A stretch of DNA of 63,693 bases, filler included, from Craspedostauros australis (lineage: Eukaryota), in the NCBI GenBank assembly GCA_030167865.1. It is 24 parts of 24 records of this genome, joined end to end, with 100 filler letters (N's around TTAATTAATTAA, not from the genome) between each part and the next. Parts side by side here need not be neighbours in the genome. Positions count along the whole stretch, not along the records: positions 49,902 to 51,601 come from JALAGF010002341.1; 23 more parts are not named here. One strand, 5' to 3'. Position 1 is the stretch's first letter; each line of letters begins with the position of its first letter. The position numbers were made by a program, and so were the translations under genes. The notes below the pieces were generated by a model. The model was not told the DNA's origin. It made no database searches and worked only from the letters and a program-made list of their open reading frames with translations. This document shows, in pieces, positions 20,980-60,076 of the stretch.

Positions 20980-21424
20980 NNNNNNNNNNNNNNNNNNNNN
21001 NNNNNNNNNNNNNNNNNNNNNNNTTAATTAATTAANNNNNNNNNNNNNNNNNNNNNNNNNNNNNNNNNNNNNNNNNNNNGATGGCACAAGTCCCATGAAA
21101 TGGCTGACTTGTGGGGGAGGAGGGGGAAGTCAACACCATCAACTGTGATACTCACACATGCACGTGCTCACACACACACACACACTGCCACATGGTACAC
21201 CCACCCACAACACACAGCAACACATGAGACCGTGATGCAACAGTCAACACACAAAGAACCAACAATATCACATGAAACAGCGTACATACCACCAATGGAG
21301 AAACACAGGAGTGCAATAACGATGCTTCAACATGGTTTCCACACAGATAAGTCTACGGTGGTGGAATCTAGATGTTCCGCTATAGGGGATAGCTTCCAGT
21401 TTTGTTAAACCCTAACCCTAACCG

Positions 21425-34319: not shown

Positions 34320-35947
34320 CTCCAGAGTCCGTTTCCGTTGAGCCTGTCGATAGCCATGGCGTGTTTCAGGCTGTTGGGTACCAGGGTGCCGAACTTGTAC
34401 TTGCTTCCTGGGCGGTGGTTTGCCAGTTTGGTGGCTAGCATTGATCGCATGTGCTGGTTCCTTGCTCTGTGGAGTTCCACCCATTCGAACCCTTTCTGGT
34501 CCTGTAGGNNNNNNNNNNNNNNNNNNNNNNNNNNNNNNNNNGGCTGTTGGGCCCTTAGGTCTCCCATCCTGCACCATGATCGCATTCCGTTCATCCATAG
34601 GATCTCTAGGATTGCTTCGGTGGTTCCGTCCTCTCTTGTCTCGTGGTGGTGACGAGTGATTCCCTTTGCCTTCCAGTTGAGGTTCCTTCCATCGAGGATG
34701 AAGTTGTCTCTTTCGGTGTACTGGTCACATTGTGCCAGGTATGCGAGTTGGTTGACTTCTGTTGCCGTGAGGTTGCAGGCAAAAGAGATGGACGTCGTGT
34801 CCCATGGGATGTTCGTGTTGCACCCTGGTGGGTTCTGCCTCGGGTTCCCTGGGTGGTTTGTTAGGGTGGGTACCCTTTGCGGTGGCACGGTGTTCACGCC
34901 TGTCGTGACTGGATCCGCTGCGATGGTCTGGATTATGGATCTGATTGTTCCATGGACGATGTTTTTCCATGGGATGCCTTTCCTGGTACCTGTTGACAAA
35001 ACAGATCGTTTGTTTTGTTTGGTCCTCTTATTCCCTCCCCTTTCTTCGGGGCCGTCATCCATGCGTTGGTATGATGGTGGTCCCGACGAACACGGAAGAT
35101 ACGAAGACCCTGGGTCAGAGTCTCCCCTGTCTGGCGCATCGGGGCTCGTTCGTGGATTGTCCTTCTCGGTGGCACGCGTCGTGTGTGCCTTCGCTGCCCG
35201 TTTGGTTAGTGTTTGGGATCGGGTGACGGGTCCTGTGTTCCGTGCCTCCCCTGAATCAGGGATCCCGGTGGGTCGCGTCAGCTTGTCGGTCTTGTTCTCC
35301 CATGCCCGCGGGTGTGTCGTCTTGGCCGTCGCTGCATACCCTCTTTTAGGTGGGGTCTTGGTCTTCCATCCTTGTGGGGTACCGGACAGTTCCAGCGGGG
35401 TCCGTGTGCTAGGGTTATCCGCCTCGGGGTCCATGTCTTGGTCGAAGGTGACACGCCTGTTGTTGTTTATGCCCTTCCTGAAAGGGCGGACCACGCTCCG
35501 TACCAGCACGCGTCGAGATTCGTCATCCAGCACGTGGTAGGTGAGGAAGTCCCCATGGGACTCTGCCACGCCGAGCCAGTATCCTGACTTCTCCTTCGAA
35601 TTCGGGAAGGTGGCGTTGGGGTCATGGTACAAGACCTTCTCGTAGAATTGGAAAGTCAAGAGCGCAGAGATGTCGACGGTTTCCCCGTGTCGTACGGTGT
35701 ATGGGATTGCGTACCGTAGGGACGGGTCTGATGTATGGTTGTGCACGTAGCACATGTATCGGAAAGCGTGGAACCATGCTTTTGGCGGTGCCCCTGTCCG
35801 GTCAATGAGTGTCGTGACACATCGCTTCATGTACAGGATGGCGTTGTGCTCGGCCGGGTTCTGCTGCTGGTTGTGCGGTTCTGTCAGCCTTGATTTGATG
35901 TGGAGGTCCCTAAGAAGCTTGAGGACCTTCTCTCCGGTCTGTTCCTT
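34320..35947 (-). mobile_element. CoDi-type Copia pol fragment: integrase C-terminus, long linker, chromodomain-like segment, RT start
   Basis: TEPHNQQQNPAE, FQFYEKVLY, GYWLGVAESHGDFLTY, RSVVRP, ILEILWMNGMRSW, KYKFGTLVPNSLKHAMAIDRLNGNGLW. Confidence 0.9.
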
Positions 35948-39672: not shown

Positions 39673-40831
39673 GCCGCTCTGCATGTTGGTGTCCGACGAC
39701 TACATCGAAGACTCCTTCTTCGATAACTTCGAGTACGTCGGAAGTGACGACGAAGTGCAGGACGATGAGATCGTCCCGGAGTGGCTCAGTGAGGAGCCAA
39801 TCATCCACGAGGTGGATCCAAGACGCGAAGTGAGCTACGAATGCTGCTTCAACGCGCACGACCTGATCGGTNCATACGGCGACGGAGCCGAGATGGGCAA
39901 CGAGGCTATCGATAGCGACATCGAAGAGGCCATGAGTGAAGAGGCCGACGACGAGATCAACGACAATGATAGAGGCCAAGACGAAACGAACGGCGGCGCA
40001 GCACCGCCTCCTCCAGTGGCGGGGAACAACAGATCGGGCATCTTCAACAAAGATGACAGCGACGAATCCGAGGACCATCCGGACGACAGCTTCAATCCAA
40101 ACGAGCGTGTCGTCTATCCAAGAGACATCGACTTCCCACCGATTGGGAATCCCAACGAATCAAACTACCTCCATCGTCATGACACGATTCCGTACGGAAC
40201 GGAAACAGCATTGGTAATCCAGAAGCAACTCATCTTCGATGCAGTAATGGAAGCAGGAGTGAAACTGTTCCCAGGGGTCGCACAAGGAGTGCTCAGACCA
40301 ATATGGGTGAACATGATGGGATCCATCCTATCCAATAACTTCAGATCAATCGAAGAGATTCTTGCCAACTCAGTTGTGATGAATCGCATACTGGAAGCGG
40401 CTGAGACAGAGACGATCCCAGAGACGGATCTTCATTACATCCTTGGAGGATGTATGCGCGTACTCTTACGCGAACGACCACGCGTCCACCCATACGATCC
40501 AGTCACCAGAACTCATCAAAACAGCACAGTTCCATCGGACTATGCACAACTACCCGACGACATGGACGACGAAGATCATCACAATCCGTACAATGAAGAC
40601 GGAGTCCACGAAGACGACGACGACGGCAGCTTTGACGACGAGATAGCTGCAGCAGCCGTGGAACAGCTCCAGGAGCTGAGCACCAAGCACAAGGACAAGG
40701 TCAACAAGGACACCTGGCTCGCCGACAGCGGAGCTTCGTGTCATATTGTCAATTCAGACGCCGCTCTCTTCAACGTGCGGCACATCAAATCCTTCGTCCA
40801 AGTGGGAGACAGCACGAAGCTGGACTCTCCC
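39673..40831 (+). mobile_element. Copia polyprotein fragment: acidic spacer, extra helical domain, aspartic protease
   Basis: TWLADSGASCHIVN...VQVGD protease motif at about 40712, preceded by about 340 aa not assignable to Gag. Confidence 0.85.
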
Positions 40832-40931: not shown

Positions 40932-42223
40932 GATTTTGTCGACCTTTACGCTGATGGCGCGCTGACATCCGATATGGCCTTGGCCATGGCATCGGCTGTG
41001 ATCGTCGCCATCGCCATCATGGTCCACACCCGCAGTCCCTTCATCACATTGATTGGCCTGGTGCAGATCATGTTCAGCTTCCCACTGTCCTTCTTCGTCT
41101 ACAGCCTGATCCTTGGGCTGGAGTTCTTCCCATTCTTGAATTTCCTCGGCATGTTCGTCATCTTCGGACTTGGTGCTGACGACGTAAGTACTACATGGCC
41201 TCATACTCGTGTCATGGACGCACGATGAAGGANCCAAGANATTGCATATNCNCTGANAGCTCACNCAATCTTGTATCTAACCAATCGCATATGCTGTTCT
41301 GTTCATTCCATGTCACCGCTCTACCGCCATTGNATCTANCCACACCATCNCCATACCGCCATGCCGTCGTGCCATATTTGCATGCCACGCAACAATACTC
41401 TCAACGCGTATAAATGGAACACACGCACGCACACGCATGCACACGCATGCACACGCACGCACACAGGTCTTCGTTGCCATGGACAAGTGGAAGAATTCCC
41501 GCCTGGATCACCCCAACGTATCCACCGAAGACATTGCGGCTATGGCGCTGCCAGATGCTGCGTCTGCGATGTTCCTCACCACGGTCACCACCGCAGTCGC
41601 CTTCTTCGCCACCGCCATCTGCCCCGTCGCGCCAGTCAAGATGTTCGCGATCTTCTGCGGTCTCCTCGTCCTCCTCGATTACTTCCTCAACGTGCTACTG
41701 GTTTTCCCAGCCCTCTGCATGTATGACATCGCTATCCAAGAGAAGGGCGATCAGGTCCATTGCTGCATTCACTCCAATCATTGCTGCAACCTGTGCTGCC
41801 GCAAGAACGGTGGGGACAACGACAACGAAGCGGACCCAGAGACCTCCTCGCAACGTGAGGACAAGGCAGAGCGCAACGGCGACAGCCTTCACGATTCCAA
41901 CAACGATGCTGTTGACCATGGCGAACATGAACATGAAGATTCATCCCTCATTCGACGAGCCCTGCTGGGGCTGTTCCACATCCTGAAGCGTGGAAAGTGG
42001 CCGATCTTCGCGCTCTCCATGATTGCGCTTGTGGTGACCGCCATCTTCGCAGCACAGCTGGACCTCCCAACCTCTTCGGATGTCCGCGTTCTGGGAGATG
42101 ACGTCGAGTTTGAGCAGGCGTACTCCTGGCGACAGGAGCTTCTATACGATCAGCTCGATAGGGCAGAAGGCAGCGTCGCTTACATCATTTGGGGCGTCAA
42201 GCCCGCAGACACCGGCAACCACA
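40932..42223 (+). CDS. Dispatched/Patched-like RND sterol-sensing-domain protein, internal exons 40932-41183 and 41467-42223 (copy 1)
   Basis: FPFLNFLGMFVIFGLGADD|VFVAMDKWK (GxxxDD), AMFLTTVTTAVAF, FAIFCGLLV...VFPAL; GT-AG intron. Confidence 0.9.
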
Positions 42224-42372
42224 GTAAGTGAACCTCGTGACTTCGTGCGAAGAGATCCTGGCCAGCGTTTCTNNNNNNNNNNNNNNNNNNNNNNNNNNNN
42301 NNNNNNNNNNNNNNNNTTAATTAATTAANNNNNNNNNNNNNNNNNNNNNNNNNNNNNNNNNNNNNNNNNNNN

Positions 42373-43640
42373 GATTTTGTCGACCTTTACGCTGATGGCG
42401 CGCTGACATCCGATATGGCCTTGGCCATGGCATCGGCTGTGATCGTCGCCATCGCCATCATGGTCCACACCCGCAGTCCCTTCATCACATTGATTGGCCT
42501 GGTGCAGATCATGTTCAGCTTCCCACTGTCCTTCTTCGTCTACAGCCTGATCCTTGGGCTGGAGTTCTTCCCATTCTTGAATTTCCTCGGCATGTTCGTC
42601 ATCTTCGGACTTGGTGCTGACGACGTAAGTACTACATGGCCTCATACTCGTGTCATGGACGCACGATGAAGGANCCAAGANATTGCATATNCNCTGANAG
42701 CTCACNCAATCTTGTATCTAACCAATCGCATATGCTGTTCTGTTCATTCCATGTCACCGCTCTACCGCCATTGNATCTANCCACACCATCNCCATACCGC
42801 CATGCCGTCGTGCCATATTTGCATGCCACGCAACAATACTCTCAACGCGTATAAATGGAACACACGCACGCACACGCACACAGGTCTTCGTTGCCATGGA
42901 CAAGTGGAAGAATGCCCGCCTGGATCACCCCAACGTATCCACCGAAGACATTGCGGCTATGGCGCTACCAGATGCTGCGTCTGCGATGTTCCTCACCACG
43001 GTCACCACCGCAGTCGCCTTCTTCGCCACCGCCATCTGCCCCGTCGCGCCAGTCAAGATGTTCGCGATCTTCTGCGGTCTCCTCGTCCTCCTCGATTACT
43101 TCCTCAACGTGCTACTGGTTTTCCCAGCCCTCTGCATGTATGACATCGCTATCCAAGAGAAGGGCGATCAGGTCCATTGCTGCATTCACTCCAATCATTG
43201 CTGCAACCTGTGCTGCCGCAAGAACGGTGGGGACAACGACAACGAAGCGGACCCAGAGACCTCCTCGCAACGTGAGGACAAGGCAGAGCGCAACGGCGAC
43301 AGCCTTCACGATTCCAACAACGATGCTGTTGACCATGGCGAACATGAACATGAAGATTCATCCCTCATTCGACGAGCCCTGCTGGGGCTGTTCCACATCC
43401 TGAAGCGTGGAAAGTGGCCGATCTTCGCGCTCTCCATGATTGCGCTTGTGGTGACCGCCATCTTCGCAGCACAGCTGGACCTCCCAACCTCTTCGGATGT
43501 CCGCGTTCTGGGAGATGACGTCGAGTTTGAGCAGGCGTACTCCTGGCGACAGGAGCTTCTATACGATCAGCTCGATAGGGCAGAAGGCAGCGTCGCTTAC
43601 ATCATTTGGGGCGTCAAGCCCGCAGACACCGGCAACCACA
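42373..43640 (+). CDS. Dispatched/Patched-like protein, near-identical copy 2 (probable allele); exons 42373-42624 and 42884-43640
   Basis: same contig ends as copy 1; differs by a shorter CACG/CA intron repeat, one S/A change (KNS vs KNA) and a silent CTG/CTA. Confidence 0.9.
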
Positions 43641-43789
43641 GTAAGTGAACCTCGTGACTTCGTGCGAAGAGATCCTGGCCAGCGTTTCTNNNNNNNNNNN
43701 NNNNNNNNNNNNNNNNNNNNNNNNNNNNNNNNNTTAATTAATTAANNNNNNNNNNNNNNNNNNNNNNNNNNNNNNNNNNNNNNNNNNNN

Positions 43790-45150
43790 CACTTCGCGGA
43801 CACCCTCCGAACCATGGGATTCCTACCCTCCAAGGCCGACAATGACATCTACACCCGAGAAGCCGACGACCACCACGAGATGATCACCACATACGTGGAT
43901 GACGTACTGGTCTTCAGTAAGGACCCCATCCCAATCATCGACGACCTCAAGAAACGGTACACCATGAAACAATGCGGTGACCCGGAGTATTACCTTGGCG
44001 GAAACATTGTCGACCTTCCCAAGAACTGGAAGGACAGGGGAGTCAACATCGGACTCTCGGCCCAGACATACATCGGAAACGTCATCAAACGAGTGGAACA
44101 ACTAGTAGGGAAGATCATCCCGAAGGCATCCACCCCCATGGTAGAGGCCTGCCATCCAGAAAGCGACACCTTGGACTTTACAAGCGCTGAAGACGCCAGG
44201 ACCTACCGATCAATACTGGGTTGCCTCAATTGGGTCGTGACCCTCGGGAGGCTGGACATCCAATACGCCACGACGACGATGGCACGGTTCGCTATGGCAC
44301 CAAGGGAAGGACATCTCCTGACCATCCAACGTATCATNGGGTACCTCAAAGGTCGAGAAAGGGGAGCCATCCTCTGCGACCCCAACCCAGTGGACCACAC
44401 GAACATCGACACTACCCTCTCAAGCCATTGGAGAGAATTCTACCCTACCAAAGCAGAAGCCACCCCTGTACCAGTACCAACACCAAAAGGGAAGCCGGTT
44501 CAAATCACGTGTTACGTGGACGCCGACCATGGCCATGACCAGGTCACACGGAAATCCATGACGGGTGTGGTACTATTGATCAACAACACCATCGTTAAGA
44601 CCATCTGCAAATGGCAGAACACAGTGGAGACATCAACCTACGGATCCGAATTGGTAGCCGCCAGGATAGCTACCGAGGCGGTCACAGGCTTGCGCTACAT
44701 GCTGAGAGACCTCGGAGTCCCCATCGACGGACCCGCAATCATGCTCGGAGACAACAAAGCGGTGGTACTCAATACTACNNNNNNNNNNNNNNNNNNNNNN
44801 NNNNNNNNNNNNNNNNNNNNNNNNNNNNNNNNNNNNNNNNNNNNNNNNNNNNNNNNNNNNNNNNNNNNNNNNNNNNNNNNNNNNNNNNNNNNNNNNNNNN
44901 NNNNNACCAAGCCTCTTTCCAAAACACCATTCCACCACATCACATCGAGAACGATATTCCGGAACTCAATCCATGAGTCCGGATACCACAGCGAAACCGT
45001 ATCACAAGCCATAACAAAGAGCAGGACGACCAGAGCAGACGATGATCCCGACATAATGGCCACGGGAACGCAAGAACCATCACCACCGAAGGAAGAACAC
45101 ACTATGAGCGTGAACATGGCAAGGTACCAACAGACCTCCATGAAGTACAG
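43790..45150 (+). mobile_element. CoDi-type Copia RT C-terminus and RNase H
   Basis: TYVDDVL, YRSILGCLNW, YVDADHGHDQVTRKSMTG, ETSTYGSELVA, GDNKAVV, TKPL. Confidence 0.95.
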
Positions 45151-45539: not shown

Positions 45540-45869
45540 CCCAGACATACAACGGACATGGCTACGACAACCCGGTGACATTTCTCCACACCATTGCAAC
45601 GCTAATCATCCGTGGCTGACTTGCACCTTGGTCAACGAAGCGATGGCGACTGTAGAGCCTGCATGGGCACACCGATTCCACGCACAGTTGTGCGCCTCTT
45701 CTGCCTTGTAGGCTTTGCCATTTGTTGCTATTGCTCAGTGGTAAACCGTGCAAACCAAGTATAACAGAGAAATGCTATTTTTGCTAAATGTCGTCTGCGA
45801 TATCGCTTGGACATGACTGCGACATGCTCACGACATACGCTAATCTGGCATCCCACGTATTGATGAGCT

Positions 45870-46345
45870 GCAGGGAAAATGCATGCGCAGGGAAGTGCAT
45901 GCGCAGGGAAGTGCATGCGCAGGGAAGTGCATGTGCAGGGAAGTGCATGTGCAGGGAAGTGCATGTGCAGGGAAGTGCATGTGCAGGGAAGTGCATGTGC
46001 ATGAAAAGTGCGTGTGCATGAAAAGTGCGTGTGCATCTGCATGTGAAGTGCATGTGCGCGGAAAGTGCATGTGCATGTGAAGTGAAGTGCATGTGCGCGG
46101 AAAGTGCATGTGCAGTGCAGTACAGTACAGTACAGTGCAGTGCATGTGAAGTGCATGTGCAGCACAGTGCAGTGCAGTGCAGTGCATGTGCACGAAAAGT
46201 GCGGTACAGTGCAGTGCAGTGCAGTGCATGTGAAGTGCATGTGCAGCACAGTGCAGTGCAGTGCAGTGCATGTGCACAAAAAGTGCGGTACAGTGCAGTG
46301 CAGTGCATGTGCACGAAAAGTGCGTGAAGTGCAGTGCATGCGCAT
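45870..46345. repeat. TGCA-rich compound minisatellite: about 8 x GCAGGGAAGTGCATGY, then (GTGCA)n blocks within a ~84-bp higher-order repeat
   Basis: read directly. Confidence 0.9.
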
Positions 46346-48242
46346 GCGACGTCGATCTGTGTACACGGACAGTGTATGGAAAGTGCACATGGTTTCACAG
46401 TACATGTTGCTACGCGAATACAGTGCACTCTTCGTGCGTTTGCAGCCCATGCATGGTTCATCTGCAGTGCAAGCATCCGCACGCGCATGCATTTGCGCAT
46501 GGGGGGATGCGTTCGACGTTTTTGATGTTGTGCACGACGTGCCTCTGCGCAGGTGGAATAATGCAAGACGACGTCATCGTGGAGAATGGTGCGTCGCGAA
46601 GGCAATCGTGGAAGGCGAGAGTGCGTGTCCCCCGCACCCACCAACACGCGTCCGGCATCAAGTGTGAGCCAGAGACAGACAGCACCCTCGATGGAGAACT
46701 TTGTGCATCGTCATCCTGAATCGCGGGGTGGTTGGTGCGTTTGCGATAGCACTGGAAGGAGAAATGACCTTGTTCCGCCAATGGCATGGAATGCAATAAC
46801 GCGTCGTCGTTGGGATGTACAGGTGCATGCAAGACACGACCACAGCAGGTGTTTAATGTGCATGCATCAGTACTACTGCACCTTTCTGTTCCCCGCGAAT
46901 AATCCATCTTGGAATGCTTGGATACAGCACGCGTCATCACAAATTTGGCAATGCTACGCAAGGTGCTGTGCCCTACCGCATGACCCGCGTCAGATCATGT
47001 CAATGAGATCCGTGAGGATGGAGTGGCACGCCCGTGGACGTAGTTGTTTGACATCATGGAACATTGCAGATGTCAGAGAGCGTCGGTGTCAATCGTGACG
47101 TGAGTTTCCCCGCCCCTCGCTGCGATGACACCAACATCGGTGCAGTCCCTCACCATGCAGGGAACTCCGTCGACAAGGTAGAGCTTTTTCCGCGTATCAC
47201 CCAAAAGTAACAGCATATTGTCCGCCGTGCAACTTCAAGTGATATCTTTGCTGGATAGGAACAACAACACGAAGTACCACGGAATGACAGCTGCGTCCAG
47301 TGTCAAGTGCCATCATTGGCATCGTAGTTGCATGAGCGAACGCAATGTGACGCCATGGCAGGGAAACACGAGTGAGATTGGGGAGAAACGACCGAGACTG
47401 TACATCTTTCGTCGCCAAGGAGGGACATGTTGTGTATACGTGTCATCACAGAGCTGGGCAATCCATGTCGTACAGAACAAACATGGTGATTAAGTGCCGC
47501 TGCCGATGGTCTGTTTTGTGACATCAACCCTGTCGCGCGGAGAGCCATCATGCCACACCACAAATGCTGGTGACGAAAGCAAATTGGCCTGTCTCCGTCA
47601 TGAATGACGTTTCCCTGGCTCGCCATGTCAAAGCAGAGGATTCCAAAGGATAAGACAATTGGTAGTGTGAAGCAGCGATGGAGTCTTGCATTTGTGGCAC
47701 TGTTCGTAACAACGCAGTTTTGCTTTCGATCCCGCAAAGACAAGGCACATTGCGGGAACAACTAGCTCTATCAGCAAATTACAATCACAAGTGCACTACT
47801 ACATGTATGTGCTCTGAATCCAATATGTTGTACGCCTGCGAGAGACAGGAAGCTGTGTAAGGAGCATCCACCATGTCCAATGTTGTGGCTTCATGATAAA
47901 ATGATAGTGTGAATAGGCACTACATGATGGCTCCCTCTCATTATTGTTTCACGTTTGATTGCGATGTGGAGGTCGTTGTGTTCGTCATGCAGCGCAAGAT
48001 GGCGACGGGTGCACACGCTTCATGTGTTGACACGAAGAACAGCAAATGATTCACGTTTGTAGGAACAAACGGCACCCACCGCGGAGGTGGCGGCTGTCTG
48101 GTATTGGTGTCAGCACGACAGCGCGCAGTGGCTTGTCGACGCTGACACCGACACAAGATAAAAAGTAAATCATCTCAAACCAGGCTCGAGTTGGGTTGGG
48201 ATTATGCAACTGTCACAAAACCGAAAAAGCGCCTGCCGAAAC

Positions 48243-49309
48243 ATGTCGGACGGATTACCCCTGTACGCGCTCACCCCCGGGACCTTCGACTGGCTGGGTT
48301 GGTCCATCATTGACGTTTCCCTCAGCATGGAAGAGATCAAGCGACTCGGTAACACAGCAGATAATCAACGAATTTTTCTTTCCTTTTTTGGCACAACAGG
48401 AACGGTTCTACACACGTTGTGGAATGAAATCGGACAAGCTGGGCTATGTCGGCATGACATGCAGGCGAAGCACATTCTTTGGACAGCGGCGTTTCTGAAG
48501 CAGTACTCCACAGAGGCCATTCTGTCTGTGTGGTTGGGCACAAATCGCACCACACTCCGCAAATGGGTCTGGATCATGCTGGACTTAGTGAGCCGAGTAA
48601 AGCAGGACGTGGTAAGTCCGCAAATTGATCAACATTGGTTCTTTCGTGTTCCATTCACTTCTCCAACAAAGCACTAACATGTCACGCATAAATACTGCAG
48701 ATTCACTGGCCCAATCGTTTTCGTGGAGTGTCCGAAGACGACAAAGCGCTTGTCACTGTTGACGGAGTCGACATTCGCATCGAAGAACCGCAACCGTTCA
48801 CAGAGGGATGGTTTTCACAGAAGTTCAAGGGTCCAGGTGTCCGGTATGAGGTCGCCCTCTCGATTGTTGGTGGAGAGATCGTCTGGACCAATGGACCCTT
48901 TCCTTGTGGCATGTGGAACGATCTCAGCATCTTCCGTTTCGGTTTAAAAAACAAGCTGATGGACGGCGAAGTTGTTGTCGCCGACAAAGGATACATTGGG
49001 GATGAACGCGTTTTGCCTCCCAAGTACGTCACTGACAAGATTCTGCGTGCAAGACATGAGACTGTTAACCGACGGCTGAAGCACTGGGCATGTATGAGAA
49101 ATGCGTGGCGACATGACACCGACAAACACATTCTTGCCTTTAATGCGGTTGCCACCATTACGCAAATTGAGCTTGTGGGTGGTTCTCCACTGTTCGATCC
49201 CTTTCCGGTGGTGGAACGAAAGCTGGCTCGGATGAGATTGCGCGAGGCACTCGGCGAGCACCTGGATCGCGTAATGGAGGCCGACCCAAACGACAGTAGG
49301 ACTACCTAA
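48243..49309 (+). mobile_element. PIF/Harbinger-IS5-like (DDE_Tnp_4) transposase; exons 48243-48611 and 48701-49309
   Basis: HTH region KHILWTAAFLKQY...TLRKWVW; GTG|GTAAGT...CTGCAG|ATT intron; catalytic VDGVD, WNDLSIF, ADKGY, RARHETVNRRLK; no stops after splicing. Confidence 0.88.
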
Positions 49310-49901: not shown

Positions 49902-51601
49902 CAATCCACACAAGCGTTCAGCTTCCCTGTGACATTCCATCCGTATCGTCCCGCAGTGCGAGAGATGGTGTAAGTGTCAACATGGTCTAACATTTTATGG
50001 ATTTTGTTGATGTCGATCGGTTTCTTCGTCGACACCCCGACGTTGGCTTGATCGTCGTGTGCTGGAGCGGCTATCATGTTCACGCCNNNNNNNNNNNNNN
50101 NNNNNNNNNNNNNNNNNNNNNNNNNNNNNNNNNNNNNNNNNNNNNNNNNNNNNNNNNNNNNNNNNNNNNNNNNNNNNATATCGAAACCGTTTTCGAGAGC
50201 CTTGTTGATGCTCAAGAGGTTGACCCATAGCTCAGGCACGTACTTCACCGACTTGAGGAGGATGATTGCAGTATCGCCATTCTTCTGCATGACCTTCATC
50301 CGCTTGTTCCCCACCTTGGTTGCCCTGAGGTATCGACCGCTGCCTACCTTGATGGAATGATTCGCTGTGCGCACGTTGGTCATGCCCTCGTCGTTGTTCG
50401 TGAGGTGACAGGAGGCGCCGGAATCTCCCAACCAGGTGTTGGCCTCGTGGCGGTCGGGTGCGATGGTCGACTTGCGCGTATNNNNNNNNNNNNNNNNNNN
50501 GATCACCATTGCCATTTCGTGGCCGTTGGCATCGCTGTATAGTGTTAACTCGCAGTGGGTACGATAATCACGGACGCCGTTGATGCTCGGATGGTGCATC
50601 CACATCAGCTGCTCCGATGCGATGCTGCTCATTTCTCCGATTAGCGCTTGTTGGATTGGTTGACAGCGAACGCTCTCTAGCATTCCGTTCATCCGGTATG
50701 CGTTGACACAGATGTCGAGTGCGCCTCGCACTCCGATTTGGTGCATAAAGTAGTACAGGGAGCGTGGCTCCACCCCTGTCAGTCTGAGGGTTGCGATGTC
50801 ATGCACTGCGTCGAAGCAGATGAGGGAGAGTTCGGACCGGACGTCGTTTGGTGAAAGGACGTTGCTCAGCGAGCATCGGGCGGTCTCGAACAACATTCCA
50901 CTCGTCTCATCTAGCACCTCTCTGCGTACCATCCTTTTGCCTTCGTTTCTAGGCACGGCACCTCTTGGCTCGTTGGCGAGTTGGATGAAGAAAGGAATGT
51001 TTGGGCAGTCTACGCACCATGCGTAGAGAGGCCCGCGCTTGAGGCACAATGGACACCATCCGTTGTTCATGTCGCGACGTGCTGACTCCTCGATCATGCC
51101 GTCGAGTGCGCTTGGACGGGTTGAGAGAGTATAAACCGGTTCGTTGATGGCGCGGTCGATGTTGTCGTTGTCGACTCCTGTCATCGCCATCTCCGTTACG
51201 TCTGCGTCTTCCTCATCTGTAGTTCCCTCGTGGTACTCTACGACCACATCATCGGGGTCCTCTGTTTCTACGTCAGATGAAAAGAGCTCGTCTTTGATCA
51301 TCTCCCCATCGTTGATAGGGGGCCCGTAGTATCCGTACTCTCGTGGAGAGTGCTTGGCCATATCCTNGGAAGTCCACGCTCTCTCCGCGTTGGATGTTCC
51401 GCTCTCGAAGCTGGCGGTTCCGTCGACGTCGATCGTGATGAACGCCATGTCGTCCATCATCACGTCATCATCGTGTGAAATCACACGGTCCTGTGTGGTC
51501 ACATTTCTGTCTTGGTTCGCGAATTCGGTGATTTTGTTGAGTTTTTCGCTGATCACACTTTCGTCTTCGGTCGCGTCTTCGTTGATGAACACACACATCA
51601 T
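49902..51601 (-). mobile_element. Copia polyprotein fragment: acidic spacer, Zn ribbon, extra helical domain, protease, GAG-pre-integrase start
   Basis: TWLGDSGASCHLTN, VKYVPELWVNLLSI, IHKMLDH; upstream GWCPLCLKRGPLYAWCVDC. Confidence 0.9.
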
Positions 51602-51701
51602 NNNNNNNNNNNNNNNNNNNNNNNNNNNNNNNNNNNNNNNNNNNNTTAATTAATTAANNNNNNNNNNNNNNNNNNNNNNNNNNNNNNNNNNNNNNNNNNN
51701 N

Positions 51702-53202
51702 GGCTCTCGAGCGCATCTACGAGCAACGCACTGCGCCAATGAAGGCAAAGTTGTTGGCTCAACTCAACGGGATGCGATTGAAGAAGGGCGAACACCCGGA
51801 TACCTTCCTTACCGAAATGGAGGTGATCCGTAACCGCCTCAAGCACGCGGGAGTTAACATGGACATGGAGCTGTACCACATGCTCGTGCTCAACGCTCTN
51901 NNNNNNNNNNNNNNNNNNNNNNNNNNNNNNNNNNNNNNNNNNNNNNNNNNNNNNNNNNNNNNNNNNNNNNNNNNNNNNNNNNNNNNNNNNNNNNNNNNNN
52001 NNNNNGACGCACGTCACATCAAGCAAGGAGGTAGTAAGCGCGAGAACAATAGCAAGGAAGAAATGGCACTCGCCGCCACTGGTGGCTTCAAGGGCCACTG
52101 TCGCAACTGTGGGGCCTACGGGCACAAGAAGGCTGACTGCCGCTCTGCGCCTAAGAACAAAGGTGGCAAGCCCCCAAAGAAGAACAAGAGAAGTGATACT
52201 GAGGACAAGGCTAAGTTCAACGGAAACTGCAAGTACTGCGGTAAGAAGGGACACAAGATCCTCGAGTGCTTCAAGTTGAAGGCAGCGATGAGAGCAGCCG
52301 ACGCCGCCAACGTGGCCACCGACGGTATGGACGGAACAGACGACGTCGCCCTCGTGATGGTCGAGGAACCAATGTGGCTACCCGAAGACGCCGCGGCAGA
52401 CAACGCCGCGTTCGTCGTGGTAGACGAACCCATGTGGATGCCCGCCAGCGACGAAGAAGACGATATCGATCTCGTGATGACCGATGAATCCATGTGGTTG
52501 CCCGACGAAGACAAGTTGGCCAACAACGAAGAATTGGTGTGTTTCCCCATCGACGAGCTCGAAAACGACCCCGTTGAGGTCAAAAATGTGACCAACCCAA
52601 GAATCGTGACAATCGACGAAATCACGAACATCAAGAAAAACCAAACAACCAACACCACCGACATGGCGCACTACGAGTCGTTCATCGACGACATGGCCCT
52701 CGCAACCACCGACGAAGACATGACCGGACTCGACCTCGAAGAAGAGATCGAGTACTCCGAAGAGGAACGAGAGGCTCACACCCCGAGTGTGTACGGATAC
52801 TACGGACCCCCAGTTGCTGCAGTTGAGACCATCAACCGCGAGCACTTTCCATCAAGCGACGAAGACGATTACACCGACGAAGACAACCTCTTCGACGGGA
52901 TCGTCTACGAGGATGAACCCCTCAACGTCGGAGACATCATGGAGAATGAAGTNGCGATGCCTGGAGTCGACCATCGNGTCACCTCCACCATCTACTCTCG
53001 AACCGAACCAAGGACTCTNGTCGATCGAATGATCGAAGAGTCGTCCCGCAATGGAGGGAGCACCGCAGGATGGTGCCCGCTGTGTTTTCAGCGCGGCCCT
53101 CTCTACGCCATGTGCAAAACCTGCCGTAACTCGCCGTTCCTCATTCAACTGGCAAACCCCCCTGCAAGGGCGGCGCCAACAACGATCCAAGACATCATGA
53201 CG
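51702..53202 (+). mobile_element. Copia Gag with two CCHC zinc knuckles, followed by an acidic repeat region and Zn ribbon
   Basis: GEHPDTFLTEMEVIRNRL (Copia gag), CRNCGAYGHKKADC, CKYCGKKGHKILEC, GWCPLCFQRGPLYAMCKTC. Confidence 0.9.
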
Positions 53203-53303
53203 NNNNNNNNNNNNNNNNNNNNNNNNNNNNNNNNNNNNNNNNNNNNTTAATTAATTAANNNNNNNNNNNNNNNNNNNNNNNNNNNNNNNNNNNNNNNNNN
53301 NNA

Positions 53304-55359
53304 TTCTACCAAGATGACTACCTCTACATCTGCGGCCGCAAGAAGGACATCATCATCGTCAACGGTGTCAACTACTACCCGCAAGACATCGAGCAGGCCG
53401 TCGAGGAGGCATCATCCGCTGTCCGTCCAGGCTGCGTCGCTGCCTTCTCGTCCGACGATTCGGGAAATGACGGACAGCTCGAGATCGTCTTTGAGATTCG
53501 AGCGAGCCGTGCGGAGGATGCAGGATCGGTGAGTCGGGAGGTCAGAAAGGCCGTGATCGAACACATCGGGTTGACACCAGCAACAATCGCAGCCGTCAAA
53601 GAACGCACCATCTCCAAAACAACAAGCGGGAAGATCCAGAGACGCCAAAATCGACAACGCCTGCATGATGGAGCGCAGAAGGTGGTGCTTGACGTGATCG
53701 AAAAGTCACACTTCTTCAGTACGCACGATACCAACCTCGCAAGCCAATCCAAGCGCCTGTCGTCGAGGAAATCCATCATCGAAGACTTCGATATCAGAGA
53801 CATGGACTTCTACGAGCTTGTGAAGAGGTGCATCGGTTCTGATGTGAAGGCCGAAGACACGTGGAAGGATGTTGGACTGTCATCCTTGATGGAGCTGGAG
53901 CTGCGACAGTCTTTTTCAACACGGTACAGCGCCACCCTCTCTCCAAACTGCTTCGAGCTCTTTCCAATGGTCGGTGACCTGAAGACGGTCCTTGAGGCAA
54001 CAGCGGGGAAGCCTCTGCCAAGGAACCTCTCAACCCTCAGGAGGCTCGCCACCGTCCCACACGAGAGGCCACTGTCCCAAGCAACCGTCGCTGTCATCCA
54101 GGCCATCGGTGCGCTCGCCATACTCTTCATCTTCGCACTCCCCATTATCCCAGCATACGAAGTTGGAAATGCGATCGCCGATTCCACGGTCCTCTCCGAC
54201 CATGAGTGGGTGCTTTTCCCTCTGATCGTCCCAGTCTGGGCCACCGCGTTCACCTTCGTGATCATTGTCTCGAAGTGGATCGCCATTGGCCGATACAGAG
54301 AGGGGTATACCAATCAAACAAACATCTACTTTATCAGATGGTGGTTCGTGGACAGGCTCGTGCATCTTTGGGAAAACTTCGTCGGACGCTTCATCGTGGG
54401 CACGCCTTTGATGACGTTGTTCTGCTACTTGATGGGCGCTGATGTTCATCGGTCTTGCAACATTTCCTCCTTCATTCGGGAGTTCGATCTGGCGAAGGTC
54501 GATGCCAATGCCTTGGTGTGCAAGCCAATCCGCTGTCGAATGTTCGGACCATGGAAAGATGAAGAAGGTCCCAGCTTGCGGTTCCGCAAGATCCAGGTGG
54601 GACCGAATGCCATGATCATGGGAATTCTCAGCCCAGGCGTCAAGGTCGGTTCCAATTGCCATGTGCAGCACATTTCTGTGCTGGCTGAGGGCGCCCAAGC
54701 ACCATCCAGCACTGTCATCAGAGGCAATCCTGGATATATCAAAAGCACAACATTTGCAACAGCAAAAGCGACATCGTCACAAAACAGCAACAGCGTCAGT
54801 GTTGACCGCGGTGATAGCGACAGCTACCGTAACGGCGACGATCCGCAACAAGCAGTTGCAAGTACAGAGATCGACATAGACGAAAGCGCAATGTCAAGAA
54901 ACGATGCCAGATGGATCATCCTGGGTGGTATGAAGATGACATGGCTGCTTGTCGAGATATACATAACCTTCTGCTGCTTCCTGATTTCTAATATCTTGGT
55001 CCGAGATCATCTTCCAGACTGGAGATATTCCAAACTGCAATATTGGATTATATCCATCGGTCTAACATCAGTACTGCTGATGATATCCAGCATCATGCTC
55101 AAGTGGGTGATGATCGGCAAGAAAAGGCCAGGCAAAGCGAGGGCGGGCATCTTGAGTGAATTCACTGATTGGGCATGCGACTACCACTTCAACCTGGCAT
55201 GTCTGATGCTCGACGGACCGACGCACAATTCGATCATCTGGACTCTGGTCCAAATGGCTCATGGACTGGACATCGATCTGCGATCAAAAGTCTTCTGCGA
55301 CAGCTTCCACCCATCGAAAGTCGACCTCATCACCATTCGACGATCCTTCGTTTCCAAGG
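53304..55359 (+). CDS. FAAL(C-terminal subdomain)-ACP-Pls-type membrane NRPS-like protein, version 1 (both ends cut by linkers)
   Basis: frame from 53304: LYICGRKKDIIIVNGVNYYPQDIE...RPGCVAAF...KTTSGKIQR; carrier-domain GLSSL at 53874; KWIAIGRYREG...RWW...GTPL...LMGA...EFDL; KWVMIGKKRPG. Confidence 0.85.
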
Positions 55360-55460
55360 NNNNNNNNNNNNNNNNNNNNNNNNNNNNNNNNNNNNNNNNN
55401 NNNTTAATTAATTAANNNNNNNNNNNNNNNNNNNNNNNNNNNNNNNNNNNNNNNNNNNNA

Positions 55461-58397
55461 TTCTACCAAGATGACTACCTCTACATCTGCGGCCGCAAGA
55501 AGGACATCATCATCGTCAACGGTGTCAACTACTACCCGCAAGACATCGAGCAGGCCGTCGAGGAGGCATCATCCGCTGTCCGTCCAGGCTGCGTCGCTGC
55601 CTTCTCGTCCGACGATTCGGGAAATGACGGACAGCTCGAGATCGTCTTTGAGATTCGAGCGAGCCGTGCGGAGGATGCAGGATCGGTGAGTCGGGAGGTC
55701 AGAAAGGCCGTGATCGAACACATCGGGTTGACACCAGCAACAATCGCAGCCGTCAAAGAACGCACCATCTCCAAAACAACAAGCGGGAAGATCCAGAGAC
55801 GCCAAAATCGACAACGCCTGCATGATGGAGCGCAGAAGGTGGTGCTTGACGTGATCGAAAAGTCACACTTCTTCAGTACGCACGATACCAACCTCGCAAG
55901 CCAATCCAAGCGCCTGTCGTCGAGGAAATCCATCATCGAAGACTTCGATATCAGAGACATGGACTTCTACGAGCTTGTGAAGAGGTGCATCGGTTCTGAT
56001 GTGAAGGCCGAAGACACGTGGAAGGATGTTGGACTGTCATCCTTGATGGAGCTGGAGCTGCGACAGTCTCTTTCAACACGGTACAGCGCCACCCTCCCTC
56101 CAAACTGCTTCGATCTCTTTCCAATGGTCGGTGACCTGAAGACGGTTCTTGAGGCAACAGCGGGGAAGCCTCTGCCAAGGAACCTCTCAACTCTCAGGAG
56201 GCTCGCCACCATCCCAAATGAGAAGCCATTGTCTCGGTTGGCAACCACACTCATCCAACTTGTTGGCGTGCTCGCCATCCTCTTCATCTTCGCACTTCCC
56301 GTCGTGCCTGCCTACGAGATTGGGAAGTTTTTGGCCAACAACGATCACACGCGCGTCGTCTTCTTCATCGATCTCACTCCATACGTCTGGGTCTTCTATC
56401 CGTTGATTATCCCAGTGTGGGTCGCTTCCTTCACACTGGAAATCATACTCGTAAAGTGGATCGTCATTGGGCGGTACAGGGAAGGGCACACCAACCAGGC
56501 CAGCCTTTACTTCCTTCGATGGTGGTTCGTCGATCGATTGCTACATCTTTGGGAACATTTCGTCAGCCGTTTCATCGTGGGCACGCCTTTGATGACGTTG
56601 TTCTGCTACTTGATGGGCGCTAATGTTCATCGGTCATCCAACATCGACGCGACCGTTCGTGAGTTTGATCTGGTGAAGATTGGTTCTCATGCAACTGTGA
56701 GTGAACCCATTCGATGCCGAATGTTCGGTCCTTTGAGAGATGATAGCCAAGGTCCCAGCTTGAGGTTTCGGAAGATCCAAGTCGGTTCGGACACAACCAT
56801 CAAGGGCATGCTCTGCCCTGGTGTCAAGGTTGGTTCCAATTGCCAAGTGCAACGCATCTCGGTTCTTGCTGAAGGTGCACAAGCACCATCAAACATCACA
56901 ATCAGCGGCAACCCAGGTTTCATCGACGCCACCGGAGCAGCCAACATACTGGACGGTGAAGGGTCGGGCAGGGAGCCGCCAGATGCATCTGCAAAGCATA
57001 GGATCAGCAGGAGCAGATGGATCTTGTTGGGAACGCTGAAGCTGGCATGGTTGGTTTTCGAGCTTCACTTCGCATTTGCCTGTTTTCTTGTGATCGACAT
57101 ACAGGTCGGTAGCGAGCTGCCGAGCTGGAGGTACGCCAAGTTGCTATACCGGCTGCTTATGATTGGATTGGTGTCCAGCTTCTTTGTCGTCTCCACGATC
57201 ATCCTGAAATGGGCGATGATTGGCAAGAAACGACCGGGTCCAGCACGGATGGGAGTGCTGTCGGAGTTTGCCGACTGGGCATGTGACTTTCACTACAGCT
57301 TGGGAGGAGCGACGCTGTATGGACTGACTTTCAATTCACCAGTGTGGAACCTCATCCTCATGGCTTCCGGGATGGATATCGACATGCGATCAAAGATAGC
57401 AGCAGACAGCTTCTGCCCTTCCAAGCTGGACCTCGTCGCCGTCAACGGATCCTTCGTGTCGAAAGCTTCCTTTGATATTGAACAGAATGGAGAATACAAG
57501 CCAATCAGGATCGAAGACAGCAGCATTGGCGCGATGGTGGCATATCGTCCTGGCGTGATCATCCGCAGAACATTGGTCTCCCCGGCCACAACTATCACCA
57601 ACGACCTAATTCACGATCACGACGACCCACGAAACAAGCGCCCCACAAGTTGGGAGTTCCTCCAGACTACATTCATCACCACATTGCTGTACGCCATCAT
57701 GTTCCTCGTGGTGGCCGCCAGCTTCATCCCGGCGTTCGAGCTGTGGATGTATGCCATCAAGCCACAGACTCCATTGGCCGCAGTCCCTACTTTGGTGATA
57801 GGCATCATCGTCCAGACCATCATTTGGCTCATAATCTTGCGGATTGTTGAGTTCATCACCTTGGCCGGAGGGAGGCAGCGCTCTGAACCATGGTGCGTCC
57901 CGCTCTACATGGTATACCAATCCTTGTGTTACTCCATTCATATCTGGTCGTTTGTGTCCACCCTTTGGGGCACACCGATGATGAATGCAGTACTCCGATT
58001 CCAAGGTGCGGATATCCAGGGAAGGCTGCTGTATTTTGGATTCCGAGTCTACGAACCCTCGCTTGTGACATTTGCAGGTGGAACTGTCATCGACGAGGCA
58101 AACATTTCGGGGCATTACGGCGTATTCTCGACACTGACATTGGGAGAGTGCTTTGCGGACGGCGTCATGCACCAACAAGCATTTGTTCTGGCGAGGAGGG
58201 AACCAACGCAACCAGGCGGAAGCCTGATTGAGCATCGTCCAGGGAAGATGGTTGGTGACGATCAAGCACCGTGCACGGAACAACTGCAATCACCGTCCAT
58301 CTTGGTGCTGGTCGAAGAAGGCCGCAGGTCAACTGACCCAGGAGCTGCGCTCGATCGTTGTACTATGCAAGATCTGGACACCACTGCACGATCATGA
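55461..58397 (+). CDS. FAAL(C-terminal subdomain)-ACP-Pls-type membrane NRPS-like protein, version 2 (5' cut, 3' complete)
   Basis: same adenylation and ACP motifs, then three TM-pair/beta-rich repeats (KWIVIGRYREG; KWAMIGKKRPG; GTPMMNAVLRFQGADIQG...EPSLV) as in epsilon-poly-L-lysine synthetase C1-C3; no intron in this part. Confidence 0.88.
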   Translation, partial: FYQDDYLYICGRKKDIIIVNGVNYYPQDIEQAVEEASSAVRPGCVAAFSSDDSGNDGQLEIVFEIRASRAEDAGSVSREVRKAVIEHIGLTPATIAAVKERTISKTTSGKIQRRQNRQRLHDGAQKVVLDVIEKSHFFSTHDTNLASQSKRLSSRKSIIEDFDIRDMDFYELVKRCIGSDVKAEDTWKDVGLSSLMELELRQSLSTRYSATLPPNCFDLFPMVGDLKTVLEATAGKPLPRNLSTLRRLATIPNEKPLSRLATTLIQLVGVLAILFIFALPVVPAYEIGKFLANNDHTRVVFFIDLTPYVWVFYPLIIPVWVASFTLEIILVKWIVIGRYREGHTNQASLYFLRWWFVDRLLHLWEHFVSRFIVGTPLMTLFCYLMGANVHRSSNIDATVREFDLVKIGSHATVSEPIRCRMFGPLRDDSQGPSLRFRKIQVGSDTTIKGMLCPGVKVGSNCQVQRISVLAEGAQAPSNITISGNPGFIDATGAANILDGEGSGREPPDASAKHRISRSRWILLGTLKLAWLVFELHFAFACFLVIDIQVGSELPSWRYAKLLYRLLMIGLVSSFFVVSTIILKWAMIGKKRPGPARMGVLSEFADWACDFHYSLGGATLYGLTFNSPVWNLILMASGMDIDMRSKIAADSFCPSKLDLVAVNGSFVSKASFDIEQNGEYKPIRIEDSSIGAMVAYRPGVIIRRTLVSPATTITNDLIHDHDDPRNKRPTSWEFLQTTFITTLLYAIMFLVVAASFIPAFELWMYAIKPQTPLAAVPTLVIGIIVQTIIWLIILRIVEFITLAGGRQRSEPWCVPLYMVYQSLCYSIHIWSFVSTLWGTPMMNAVLRFQGADIQGRLLYFGFRVYEPSLVTFAGGTVIDEANISGHYGVFSTLTLGECFADGVMHQQAFVLARREPTQPGGSLIEHRPGKMVGDDQAPCTEQLQSPSILVLVEEGRRSTDPGAALDRCTMQDLDTTARS

Positions 58398-58600
58398 ACG
58401 ATTCGATCAGATTCAGGCGGTCATTAATACTACTCAAAAGAGTAGGTTTTAATGCCTCTCTACTTCTCCAACTCTCTTCAATCAATACTTTCAGTTTCGA
58501 ACATTTAAACCGCTCTGCTACCAACAGCAACTCTTGCAAATCGTCTCCGTCGACCATCTCACCAGCCTTGATGAATGACATATCGCCGAAGTACGATAGA
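58363..58600 (-). pseudogene. BTB/POZ-like fragment
   Basis: YLSYFGD...LQELLLVAERFKCSKLKVLIE resembles the C-terminal helices of BTB; no upstream part seen. Confidence 0.4.
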
Positions 58601-58825
58601 TATCAGTAAGGAAATTTTCGGGACTTAGGACCCACTCGAGTGAACGAAGGTGCAGTCGTGCCTGATCGTGACTTAAACTGTAACAAAATAAGTACATATT
58701 CGGAATCTACGCAAAATTCTGTCGAGGGATATTTAATTTAAAAATCGGCAGAGTTTGTTGGAAATCCGGGGTTATTGTTAGTACTGTAGTCTAATCCGCT
58801 GTTAGAAACTGTACCGTTTTAGAAC

Positions 58826-59424
58826 TGTGAGCACAATCTCACTTTCTCTTCCGATTTCATTCTTCATGATAGGCATCTGTCGCGGTGGCGACACAGGGCG
58901 TCCTGTTGTTCCTAGGTGCTTCTCTCCCCATTCATCATGCTCTGTTCTTGCTTCCTTGTCTTGGCATTGTTGTTGCTTGCCTCTGCATCGTCGTAGATGT
59001 CTACGCTCGCATGGTAGGGGTCTGCAGTCCTGAGCACTTGCCTATCACATGTCTCCGTTGTTGATCTCATGACACCATCGTTCCACGATCGATGTCAACC
59101 TTGGTGATGTTCCAAACCTGCGGATGTTCTGATCCTTTCTGATGTTCCAAACCTGCGGATGTTCTTGTCCGCAGGAGGGGCGCGTGCTGTCCTCTGAAGG
59201 GGGTGCGTCACTTACCCATTGGCCTGCTGTTCTGGTCGACGTCGTCGTCTGGATGGTTGCCATGGTTGGTTTGGTATTGGGACCTCCTGATCCGCCAAAG
59301 GTGTCGTCCTTGCGTTACTGGAGGACAGGCTATCTTCCTCACGGTAGTACAGGTATCAATCGCGTCCGTACCCTTAGTCATAGTCACAATGACATGGCAT
59401 ATAAAGGCGTGACAAATAGTCTCA
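58826..59424. mobile_element. Possible solo LTR (~600 bp)
   Basis: TG...CA ends flanked by GAAC on both sides (candidate 4-bp TSD); internal duplication of TGATGTTCCAAACCTGCGGATGTTCT at about 59105-59165. Confidence 0.35.
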
Positions 59425-60076
59425 GAACATGTGACGAATAATATTCAAAGCTGTGATGAATAATGTTGGAAGGTGCGGCAATCACGGGTATTCCAACAAA
59501 GTCGTACCCTCGTTTCCTAACAGTTCGCCACCATCAGATCGCCTACGCAATTTGTGCTGCGGAAGGAGGTGACGAATTTGTGACGGAGCGCAAGGGACTG
59601 AACATGAACGTGCGGAAACAAACGTTCACCGAAACTGACAAGGACGGCAATGAGATCGGTGTGACTGTGTCTCACACGGACTTCACGTTGGAGGAGGAGG
59701 AGGATGTCGAAATGTGTGACATCAGTAATTCCCGATTGTACGGGACTGAACCAAAATAGAGTACAGAAACAACAAATACCCCCCTACCGTTAACGTGGCA
59801 AGCGCATGATCGATCACTCCTGAGCGTTACAGGAGCACGTTACTTTTGGGACTACGGGGAATTTCGACAGGAGGAGGATGAGGCAACCAACGATGCTTCC
59901 AAGAAACCAACTGCAACAGGCAAGAAAGGCAAACCAGCTGGCTTCAAATACGCCAAGCCCGACATCAAAGGTATGTNNNNNNNNNNNNNNNNNNNNNNNN
60001 NNNNNNNNNNNNNNNNNNNNTTAATTAATTAANNNNNNNNNNNNNNNNNNNNNNNNNNNNNNNNNNNNNNNNNNNN

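Follow-up and report, generated by a model that had tools for sequence, protein, structure and literature searches.

The DNA analysed here, a 63,693-base window from Craspedostauros australis (GCA_030167865.1), contains fragments of three Copia retrotransposons, designated e1, e2 and e3. In two of them, e1 and e2, the region between the basic nucleocapsid and the aspartic protease of Gag-Pol is occupied by a long spacer that shares one reading frame with the domains on either side and whose protein sequence is conserved between these divergent elements. We put at about an even chance the explanation that this region is a lineage-specific, greatly expanded, cis-acting spacer of a single open reading frame (ORF) Ty1/Copia Gag-Pol.

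The window, apparently a collection of small contigs that were left unplaced, consists of 24 pieces of 1.1 to 16.6 kb, linked by identical N44-TTAATTAATTAA-N44 joints (for example, at 51602-51701) that place stops in every frame. The pieces are separate contigs, and adjacent pieces therefore carry no genomic context for e1 (49902-51601, minus strand), e2 (51702-53202, plus strand) or e3 (39673-40831, plus strand). Each of the three frames stays open from one end of its contig to the other: 566, 500 and 386 codons, respectively, contain 0 stops. Longer N runs within e1 and e2 substitute sequence base for base, and alignments to the comparator protein described below cross them ungapped. Judged by its domains, the system is a Ty1/Copia (Pseudoviridae-type) Gag-Pol, with a Copia-type Gag bearing CCHC knuckles in e2 and a D[ST]G protease in e1. 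The order in e1 is protease (PR) followed by the N-terminus of integrase (IN); reverse transcriptase (RT) and RNase H, which complete the Copia order PR-IN-RT-RNase H, are absent from the e1, e2 and e3 contigs. The position "between Gag and protease" is accordingly that of a composite, in which e2 extends from Gag to a four-cysteine (C4) ribbon and e1 from the acidic region through the same ribbon to protease and integrase.

The size of the spacer is apparent from comparison with P0004, a 1375-residue Ty1/Copia polyprotein from an ENA record with Pfam matches to Retrotran_gag_2, Pol_BBD, SH3_retrovirus and RVT_2. This protein was the sole relative of the protease/integrase part of e1 in a word-indexed search (1 match among 89 candidates, expectation value (E) 9.1e-32). 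Its Gag has two CCHC knuckles in the arrangement seen in e2 (FKGxCRNCG..GHK), and its protease and integrase N-terminus resemble those of e1. Fragment e2 aligns to P0004 residues 110-292 through both CCHC knuckles (BLASTP, E 1e-12), and e1 aligns from its residue 388 to P0004 residues 331-510 with 39% identity (E 4e-34). Between the second CCHC knuckle and the protease alignment, P0004 has 38 residues, whereas the composite has about 470 (e2 residues 193-455 plus e1 residues 181-387), exceeding the P0004 spacer by about 430 residues. P0004 is without the acidic stretch, the C4 motif and the helical island found in e1/e2, and BLASTP finds no alignment between it and the acidic spacer of e2 (residues 193-455). 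An earlier note on this DNA had stated that Copia elements normally carry a short linker at this junction, which is true of P0004. Its proposal of a conserved insert of several hundred residues stands in part: an in-frame stretch of about 470 residues emerges from the composite of two elements and is missing from P0004, but its extension to three elements is unsupported, and about 260 of its residues are acidic and, instead of forming a folded module, are probably disordered.

The spacer comprises three parts. The first consists of about 260 strongly acidic residues with few Lys or Arg and with short conserved islands. The second is a well-conserved block of about 50 residues that runs from MIEES through CxxC-x9-CxxC and PFxIQLAN to AxP. 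The third, of about 170 residues with ordinary charge, includes a helix-prone island and leads into the protease.

In e2, the C-terminal part of Gag lies at 51703..52278 (+) and holds the two CCHC knuckles at 52099-52140 (residues 133-146) and 52228-52269 (residues 176-189). Its Pfam matches fall under the cut-off, with Retrotran_gag_2 at 19.9 bits against 27 and zf-CCHC at 18 against 20.8 (residues 132-147 only). The nucleocapsid region of e2 (residues 101-192) has a net charge of +15. It is followed directly by the acidic spacer (residues 193-455, 52279..53067, +), in which 69 Asp and Glu and 14 Lys and Arg residues give a net charge of -55, and which includes YGYYGPP at 52792-52812 (residue 364). 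Three protein-level repeats, each a hydrophobic run followed by [DE]E[PS]MW[LM]P, can be read from the translation within this spacer (residues 215-270, 52345..52512, +). Tandem Repeats Finder (TRF) reports no DNA tandem repeat at 52345..52512, and across e1 and e2 it finds only one 28-base array, with a score of 31. The C4 knuckle of e2, GWCPLCFQRGPLYAMCKTC, occupies residues 456-474 (53068..53124, +) and is followed by PFLIQLAN at 53134-53157 (residue 478, +); the contig stops at 53202. Antisense to e2 (51703-52851, minus strand) run open frames of 157 to 225 codons, as would be expected on the strand complementary to acidic, GAN-rich coding sequence, and nothing independent supports them.

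In e1, the contig starts inside the acidic part of the spacer (residues 1-165, 51107..51601, minus strand), where 42 Asp and Glu and 10 Lys and Arg residues give a net charge of -32; this part aligns with e2 residues 278-440 and contains a YGYYGPP island identical to that in e2 (residue 89, 51317..51337). The conserved block covers residues 169-217 (50951..51097), from MIEES through the C4 knuckle and PFFIQLAN to AVP. Its knuckle, GWCPLCLKRGPLYAWCVDC, spans residues 181-199 (51005..51061), and PFFIQLAN starts at residue 203 (50972-50995). Further downstream, a hydrophobic island (residues 258-331, 50609..50830) with three predicted helices, assigned by DSSP on a model with a predicted local distance difference test (pLDDT) of 31.8, holds the segment LICFDAV...MNGMLESV (residues 260-311), of which LICFDAV lies at 50804-50824. 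The aspartic protease is at 50183..50434 (Pfam Pol_BBD, 57.8 bits, cut-off 27), with DSGAS at 50411-50425 (residue 393). The start of integrase, its N-terminal zinc-binding region, is at 49904..50083 and aligns to P0004 residues 450-510. All of the strings cited in the earlier note are present where it placed them, upstream of DSGAS wherever the contig reaches one.

The spacers of e1 and e2 are homologous, with 36% identity over 225 aligned residues (E 2e-30), and the alignment includes YGYYGPP and CxxC-x9-CxxC. The claim that two elements share these two motifs together with PFxIQLAN is thereby borne out. All four Cys residues of the C4 motif are kept in both elements. Shuffled sequence almost never yields such a motif: of 20000 shuffles each, 25 of the e1 pre-protease region and 2 of the e2 spacer produced a pattern of the form C..C-x(5-20)-C..C. 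Conservation between e1 and e2 comes as islands; sliding windows over e1 residues 169-217 contain 7 to 11 identical residues out of 15, with 9 to 11 around the ribbon, and the acidic part has the short common islands FIDDMA, YGYYGPP and AMxGVD.

The substitution pattern between e1 and e2 is consistent with purifying selection on the encoded protein. Over 208 aligned codons, nucleotide identity is 0.60 at the first codon position, 0.625 at the second and 0.46 at the third; positions 1 and 2 taken together have 255 identical sites out of 416, against 96 of 208 for position 3 (Fisher p 4e-4). By the Nei-Gojobori method, the proportions of nonsynonymous (pN) and synonymous (pS) differences across the whole aligned region are 0.37 and 0.64, giving a ratio of nonsynonymous to synonymous substitution (dN/dS) of about 0.36. 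The corresponding values are pN 0.41, pS 0.60 and dN/dS of about 0.49 for the acidic part, and pN 0.29, pS 0.73 and dN/dS of about 0.13 for the ribbon block. The insert has a dN/dS below 1 in the e1/e2 pair, as a whole and in both of these parts. Taken with the intact frames, the dN/dS and codon-position values argue against neutral drift of the e1/e2 spacer.

The C4 motif departs from the two zinc motifs with which it was compared. Its spacing, C-x2-C-x9-C-x2-C without a His, differs from that of the retroviral-type CCHC knuckle, C-x2-C-x4-H-x4-C. The consensus for RanBP2/NZF-type fingers is W-x-C-x2-C-x3-N-x6-C-x2-C. In the motif found here, Trp immediately precedes the first Cys, an inner spacer of 9 residues replaces one of 10 and Gly takes the place of Asn, and zf-RanBP gives no Pfam match up to E 10. 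The four cysteines would bind one zinc ion, forming a small knuckle or ribbon, which would add to the polyprotein a third point for binding nucleic acid or protein.

As an expanded Gag-protease spacer, the region would have its main effect in cis. The acidic stretch would serve as a charge counterweight to the basic nucleocapsid, and such a counterweight would tune how particles assemble and condense and when the protease is activated. The helical island may extend the protease at its N-terminus or mark a region of cleavage sites, rather than being a separate enzyme.

Several points weigh against this explanation. Gag, spacer and protease occur together on no single piece, and the figure of about 470 residues merges two elements that are only 36% identical. 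The comparator is one protein, P0004, the only match among its 89 candidates. With dS near saturation and a codon alignment guided by the protein alignment, apparent constraint is inflated and the dN/dS values are rough. We infer zinc binding, disorder, the cis role and cleavage, disorder from composition only, and the cis-acting assembly role is proposed by analogy with Ty1 and Ty3 only. The structure model of e1 residues 160-367 is too poor for a fold search (pLDDT 31.8), and the AlphaFold2 (AF2) model of e3 residues 160-285, with helices at model residues 18-39, 49-61, 67-86 and 91-105, is of low confidence (pLDDT 57.2).

Searches for relatives of the spacer bear on the alternatives as well. 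The e1 insert (367 residues) gave 0 matches among 2388 candidates in a word-indexed search of longer proteins and 0 among 1562 candidates at near length. An exhaustive profile search with e1 and e2 across 1.84 billion representatives returned a sole match, P0003 (E 9.8e-6), which was rejected as a tandem-repeat artefact in 5 stretches. Among prokaryotic genome contigs, a collection without eukaryotes and thus of little weight, a protein-pattern scan yielded 111 pattern matches with 0 confirmed, and a degenerate DNA pattern for the ribbon yielded 0 matches. Pfam searches of four sub-segments to E 10 gave no credible match, the best being an ANCHR-like B-box at the e1 knuckle (E 0.39), and searches of spacer segments against PDB sequences gave best E values of 1.1 and 0.36 for two of the segments and no match for another. 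The hydrophobic island of e1 (residues 258-331) has no Pfam or PDB match. In the ESM Atlas, where values below 0.9 are leads only, e1 residues 160-367 reach 0.85 to 0.86 at best (one cluster each for Euglenozoa, RVT_1 and, weakly, Bacillariophyta) and e3 residues 160-345 reach 0.89, with a recognition of 1897 that is under the 2300 mark; the two queries do not converge on one family.

One alternative is that the region encodes one or more accessory proteins released by the protease, which may act on the host, as in anti-silencing or in the targeting of integration, or be devoted to particle assembly, by analogy with the recruitment of host machinery by accessory proteins or p6-like late-domain proteins of retroviruses. 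Constraint is stronger on the ribbon block and the conserved islands than on their surroundings, the short conserved motifs within the probably disordered acidic stretch may resemble host-recruiting linear motifs, and the lack of a match to any known family leaves room for a new function. However, there is no sign of cleavage sites, of a separate product or of a host homologue, and the profile search identified 0 credible relatives among the 1.84 billion representatives. Motifs resembling those for SUMO interaction, a hydrophobic run followed by acidic residues, are not enriched in the acidic parts: e2 has 4 against 1.35 expected, a count reached by 52 of 1000 shuffles, and e1 and e3 have 1 each, at expectation, reached by 557 and 437 of 1000 shuffles, respectively. 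The third element, e3, is also without the conserved block. Such an accessory product is, in our assessment, unlikely.

A second alternative holds that the spacer is functionless, a tolerated and fast-drifting expansion, arising for instance through slippage or duplication of acidic repeats, that stays open only as part of an essential ORF. The acidic part is of low complexity, includes the three protein-level repeats of e2 and is the least constrained (dN/dS about 0.49). The nearest relative, P0004, manages without the spacer, and e3 holds an unrelated, similarly composed sequence at the same place. Yet the ribbon block and YGYYGPP are kept despite an overall identity of 36%, with all four Cys retained, and the acidic part itself still has a dN/dS below 1; the requirement for an open frame alone cannot account for conservation at the level of residues. 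We consider a functionless expansion distinctly unlikely.

The fragment e3 was central to a further claim of the earlier note, that a segment of e1 aligns with a segment of e3 just before the protease and that three elements have one module in common. Fragment e3 opens inside an acidic stretch (residues 1-165, 39674..40168, +; net charge -41) that shows no significant similarity to e1/e2. A predicted four-helix island follows (residues 177-264, 40202..40465, +; AF2 from a single sequence, mean pLDDT 57.2), holding LIFDAV (40229-40246) and MNRILEAA (40379-40402). A second acidic stretch stands right before the protease (residues 276-335, 40499..40678, +), with 19 Asp and Glu and 1 Lys or Arg residue and a net charge of -18. 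The protease start (40679..40831, +), with DSGAS at 40724-40738, is ended by the contig edge; BLASTP aligns it to e1 (E 2e-9) and to P0004 (E 7e-9), and Pol_BBD matches in part at 18.2 bits. At least 335 residues lie upstream of the protease anchor, without a CCHC knuckle, and neither the C4 motif nor YGYYGPP occurs in the 350 residues of e3 before DSG.

The pair of segments aligned by eye (e1 residues 260-315 and e3 residues 186-248) is the best local alignment for both Smith-Waterman and hhalign, but the similarity is not significant. The Smith-Waterman score of 36 was matched by 78 of 1000 shuffles, hhalign gave P 0.058 and a probability of 0.9% against P 0.15 for a reversed control, and the BLASTP alignment of e1 with e3 is limited to the protease (E 2e-9). 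The likeness of e3 to the other elements is one of layout only, namely an acidic stretch (-41), a non-acidic helical island, a second acidic stretch (-18) and the protease. On these alignments, one module common to three elements is unsupported.

The contigs of e1 and e3 also resemble each other in where they break. The e1 end at 51601 and the e3 start at 39673 both fall two codons before a Cys-hydrophobic-[DNS][DE] motif (MMCVFINE and PLCMLVSD, respectively), the counterpart of which in e2, LVCFPIDE, comes directly after the three MW[LM]P repeats. The DNA at the two breaks has nothing obvious in common, and the coincidence of position was treated as such, or may reflect an assembly break at a repeat. 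Elsewhere, a whole-contig ORF rich in Pro, Gly, His and Asn (18166-19497, minus strand), with no Pfam match, ends in ...QCLMPDENKIINLE..IMEDDE. This end is faintly reminiscent of the Cys-hydrophobic-acidic motif with which the acidic regions of e1, e2 and e3 open, and the ORF may be the post-Gag region of another element.

The e3 layout is relevant to a third alternative, in which the helical island of e1, and perhaps that of e3, folds into a helical domain at the N-terminus of the protease and the rest of the spacer is plain linker. In Ddi1-type proteases, a helical domain precedes the retropepsin fold, and the island would be Ddi1-like in position. In e1 and e3 alike, a non-acidic island predicted to be helical lies 130 to 165 residues before DSG, and both alignment methods choose the co-linear island pair as best. 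Against this, the e1/e3 similarity lacks significance, as the shuffles and the hhalign P value indicate, and the models are of low confidence. When the e3 island model was compared with the PDB by Foldseek, 0 of the 57 listed matches reached E<=0.001; they were generic helical bundles only, with no Ddi1 entry among the matches listed. In e3, moreover, the island does not adjoin the protease, as an acidic stretch of 60 residues lies between them. A helical protease domain of this kind appears improbable.

There is only a slim chance that the block of about 50 residues and the helical island form a new zinc-binding domain family, so far in these Copia elements only, that is released to recruit a host factor, for example in integration-site choice or escape from silencing; if this were true, the released product would constitute a true accessory gene inside a Copia polyprotein.

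Among the CoDi lineages of diatom Copia elements, tandem CCHC fingers are reported for CoDi6.2-6.5 (Maumus 2009, PMC2806351). The two CCHC knuckles of e2 are the sole hint to CoDi besides the weak Bacillariophyta row in the ESM Atlas; placement within CoDi needs RT, which lies on none of the three contigs. Keyword searches of the open-access literature and the accessible sections of PMC2806351, PMC2774666 and 10.1101/2025.10.24.684338 turned up no account of a Gag-protease insert in CoDi elements, which is no proof of absence.

The window holds several further Copia-type fragments, none of which covers the spacer region. These are a fragment at 21080-23698 (+) that spans integrase to RT (gag_pre-integrs, SH3_retrovirus and RVT_2), an RT fragment at 43790-45150 (+) with RVT_2 at 31.4 bits against a cut-off of 31.6, and an integrase-like Copia-type ORF at 34320-35947 (minus strand) with no Pfam match. 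A PIF/Harbinger-type transposase fragment (DDE_Tnp_4, 29.1 bits, cut-off 24.8) lies at 48692-49306 (+). At 45728-46720, long overlapping open frames on both strands contain repeated CTALH/HMHF-like units and probably represent a tandem DNA repeat, not a gene. Three near-identical contig pairs are probably alleles or collapsed duplicates: 40932-42272 and 42373-43689, which encode a sterol-sensing/Patched-like membrane protein and differ by a short repeat rich in His, Ala, Arg and Thr; 53303-55359 and 55460-59976, in which a long membrane region comes after a DIP2-like AMP-binding domain; and 25718-28360 and 28461-31168. Rfam gives 0 matches at gathering score for the whole window.

Copia elements are generally regarded as compact, their nucleocapsid and protease being joined by a short link. 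If the explanation as an expanded cis-acting spacer is true, a roughly tenfold longer, selected spacer with its own zinc motif would indicate that this junction can expand, as it has in retroviruses (p6, transframe). The expanded spacer would then offer a handle on the control of particle assembly and protease timing in the host and, if the host is a diatom, the C4 block would provide a simple marker for classifying these Copia families. The evidence consists of two fragments and one comparator, and the finding is a modest, lineage-specific one rather than a new kind of system.

Known systems provide several points of comparison. The retroviral p6 and transframe p6* segments lie between nucleocapsid and protease, are disordered, carry short motifs and influence protease activation, with lengths of about 50 to 70 residues. 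They occupy the same place in the polyprotein as the spacer described here, but are shorter, have no zinc knuckle and show no sequence relation to it. Sireviruses, compared here by published description, are a Copia lineage and likewise have an enlarged Gag C-terminal region with extra zinc motifs; the enlargement is reported to carry duplicated or triplicated CCHC arrays (PMC2774666). These are plant elements, however, and their extra motifs are CCHC arrays, in contrast to the C4 motif with a 9-residue spacer found in e1 and e2.

In position and composition, the closest parallels are spacer peptides of other LTR elements, as described for Ty1 and Ty3 in PMC4974528. The acidic spacer (SP) of Ty3 Gag3 is proposed to act as a 'spring' with the basic nucleocapsid, which limits premature multimerisation and later aids uncoating. 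Like the region described here, it is an acidic spacer adjoining a basic CCHC nucleocapsid, and it supplies a charge-controlled assembly mechanism; it differs in belonging to a Gypsy-type element, in being short and in lying between capsid and nucleocapsid instead of after the nucleocapsid. In Ty1, the protease cuts Gag-p49 into p45 and an acidic C-terminal peptide of 40 residues, p4 (PMC4974528). This peptide is likewise acidic, belongs to the Copia superfamily and lies downstream of the part of Gag that binds RNA, next to the protease. The e2 plus e1 spacer shares this acidity and position, but not the shortness of about 40 residues: it has about 260 acidic residues and about 210 more, and Ty1 is without a zinc motif. 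The two are likened here by position and charge. Given a position and composition like those of Ty1 p4 and the Ty3 spacer, the region is therefore read as an expanded cis-acting spacer between Gag and protease.

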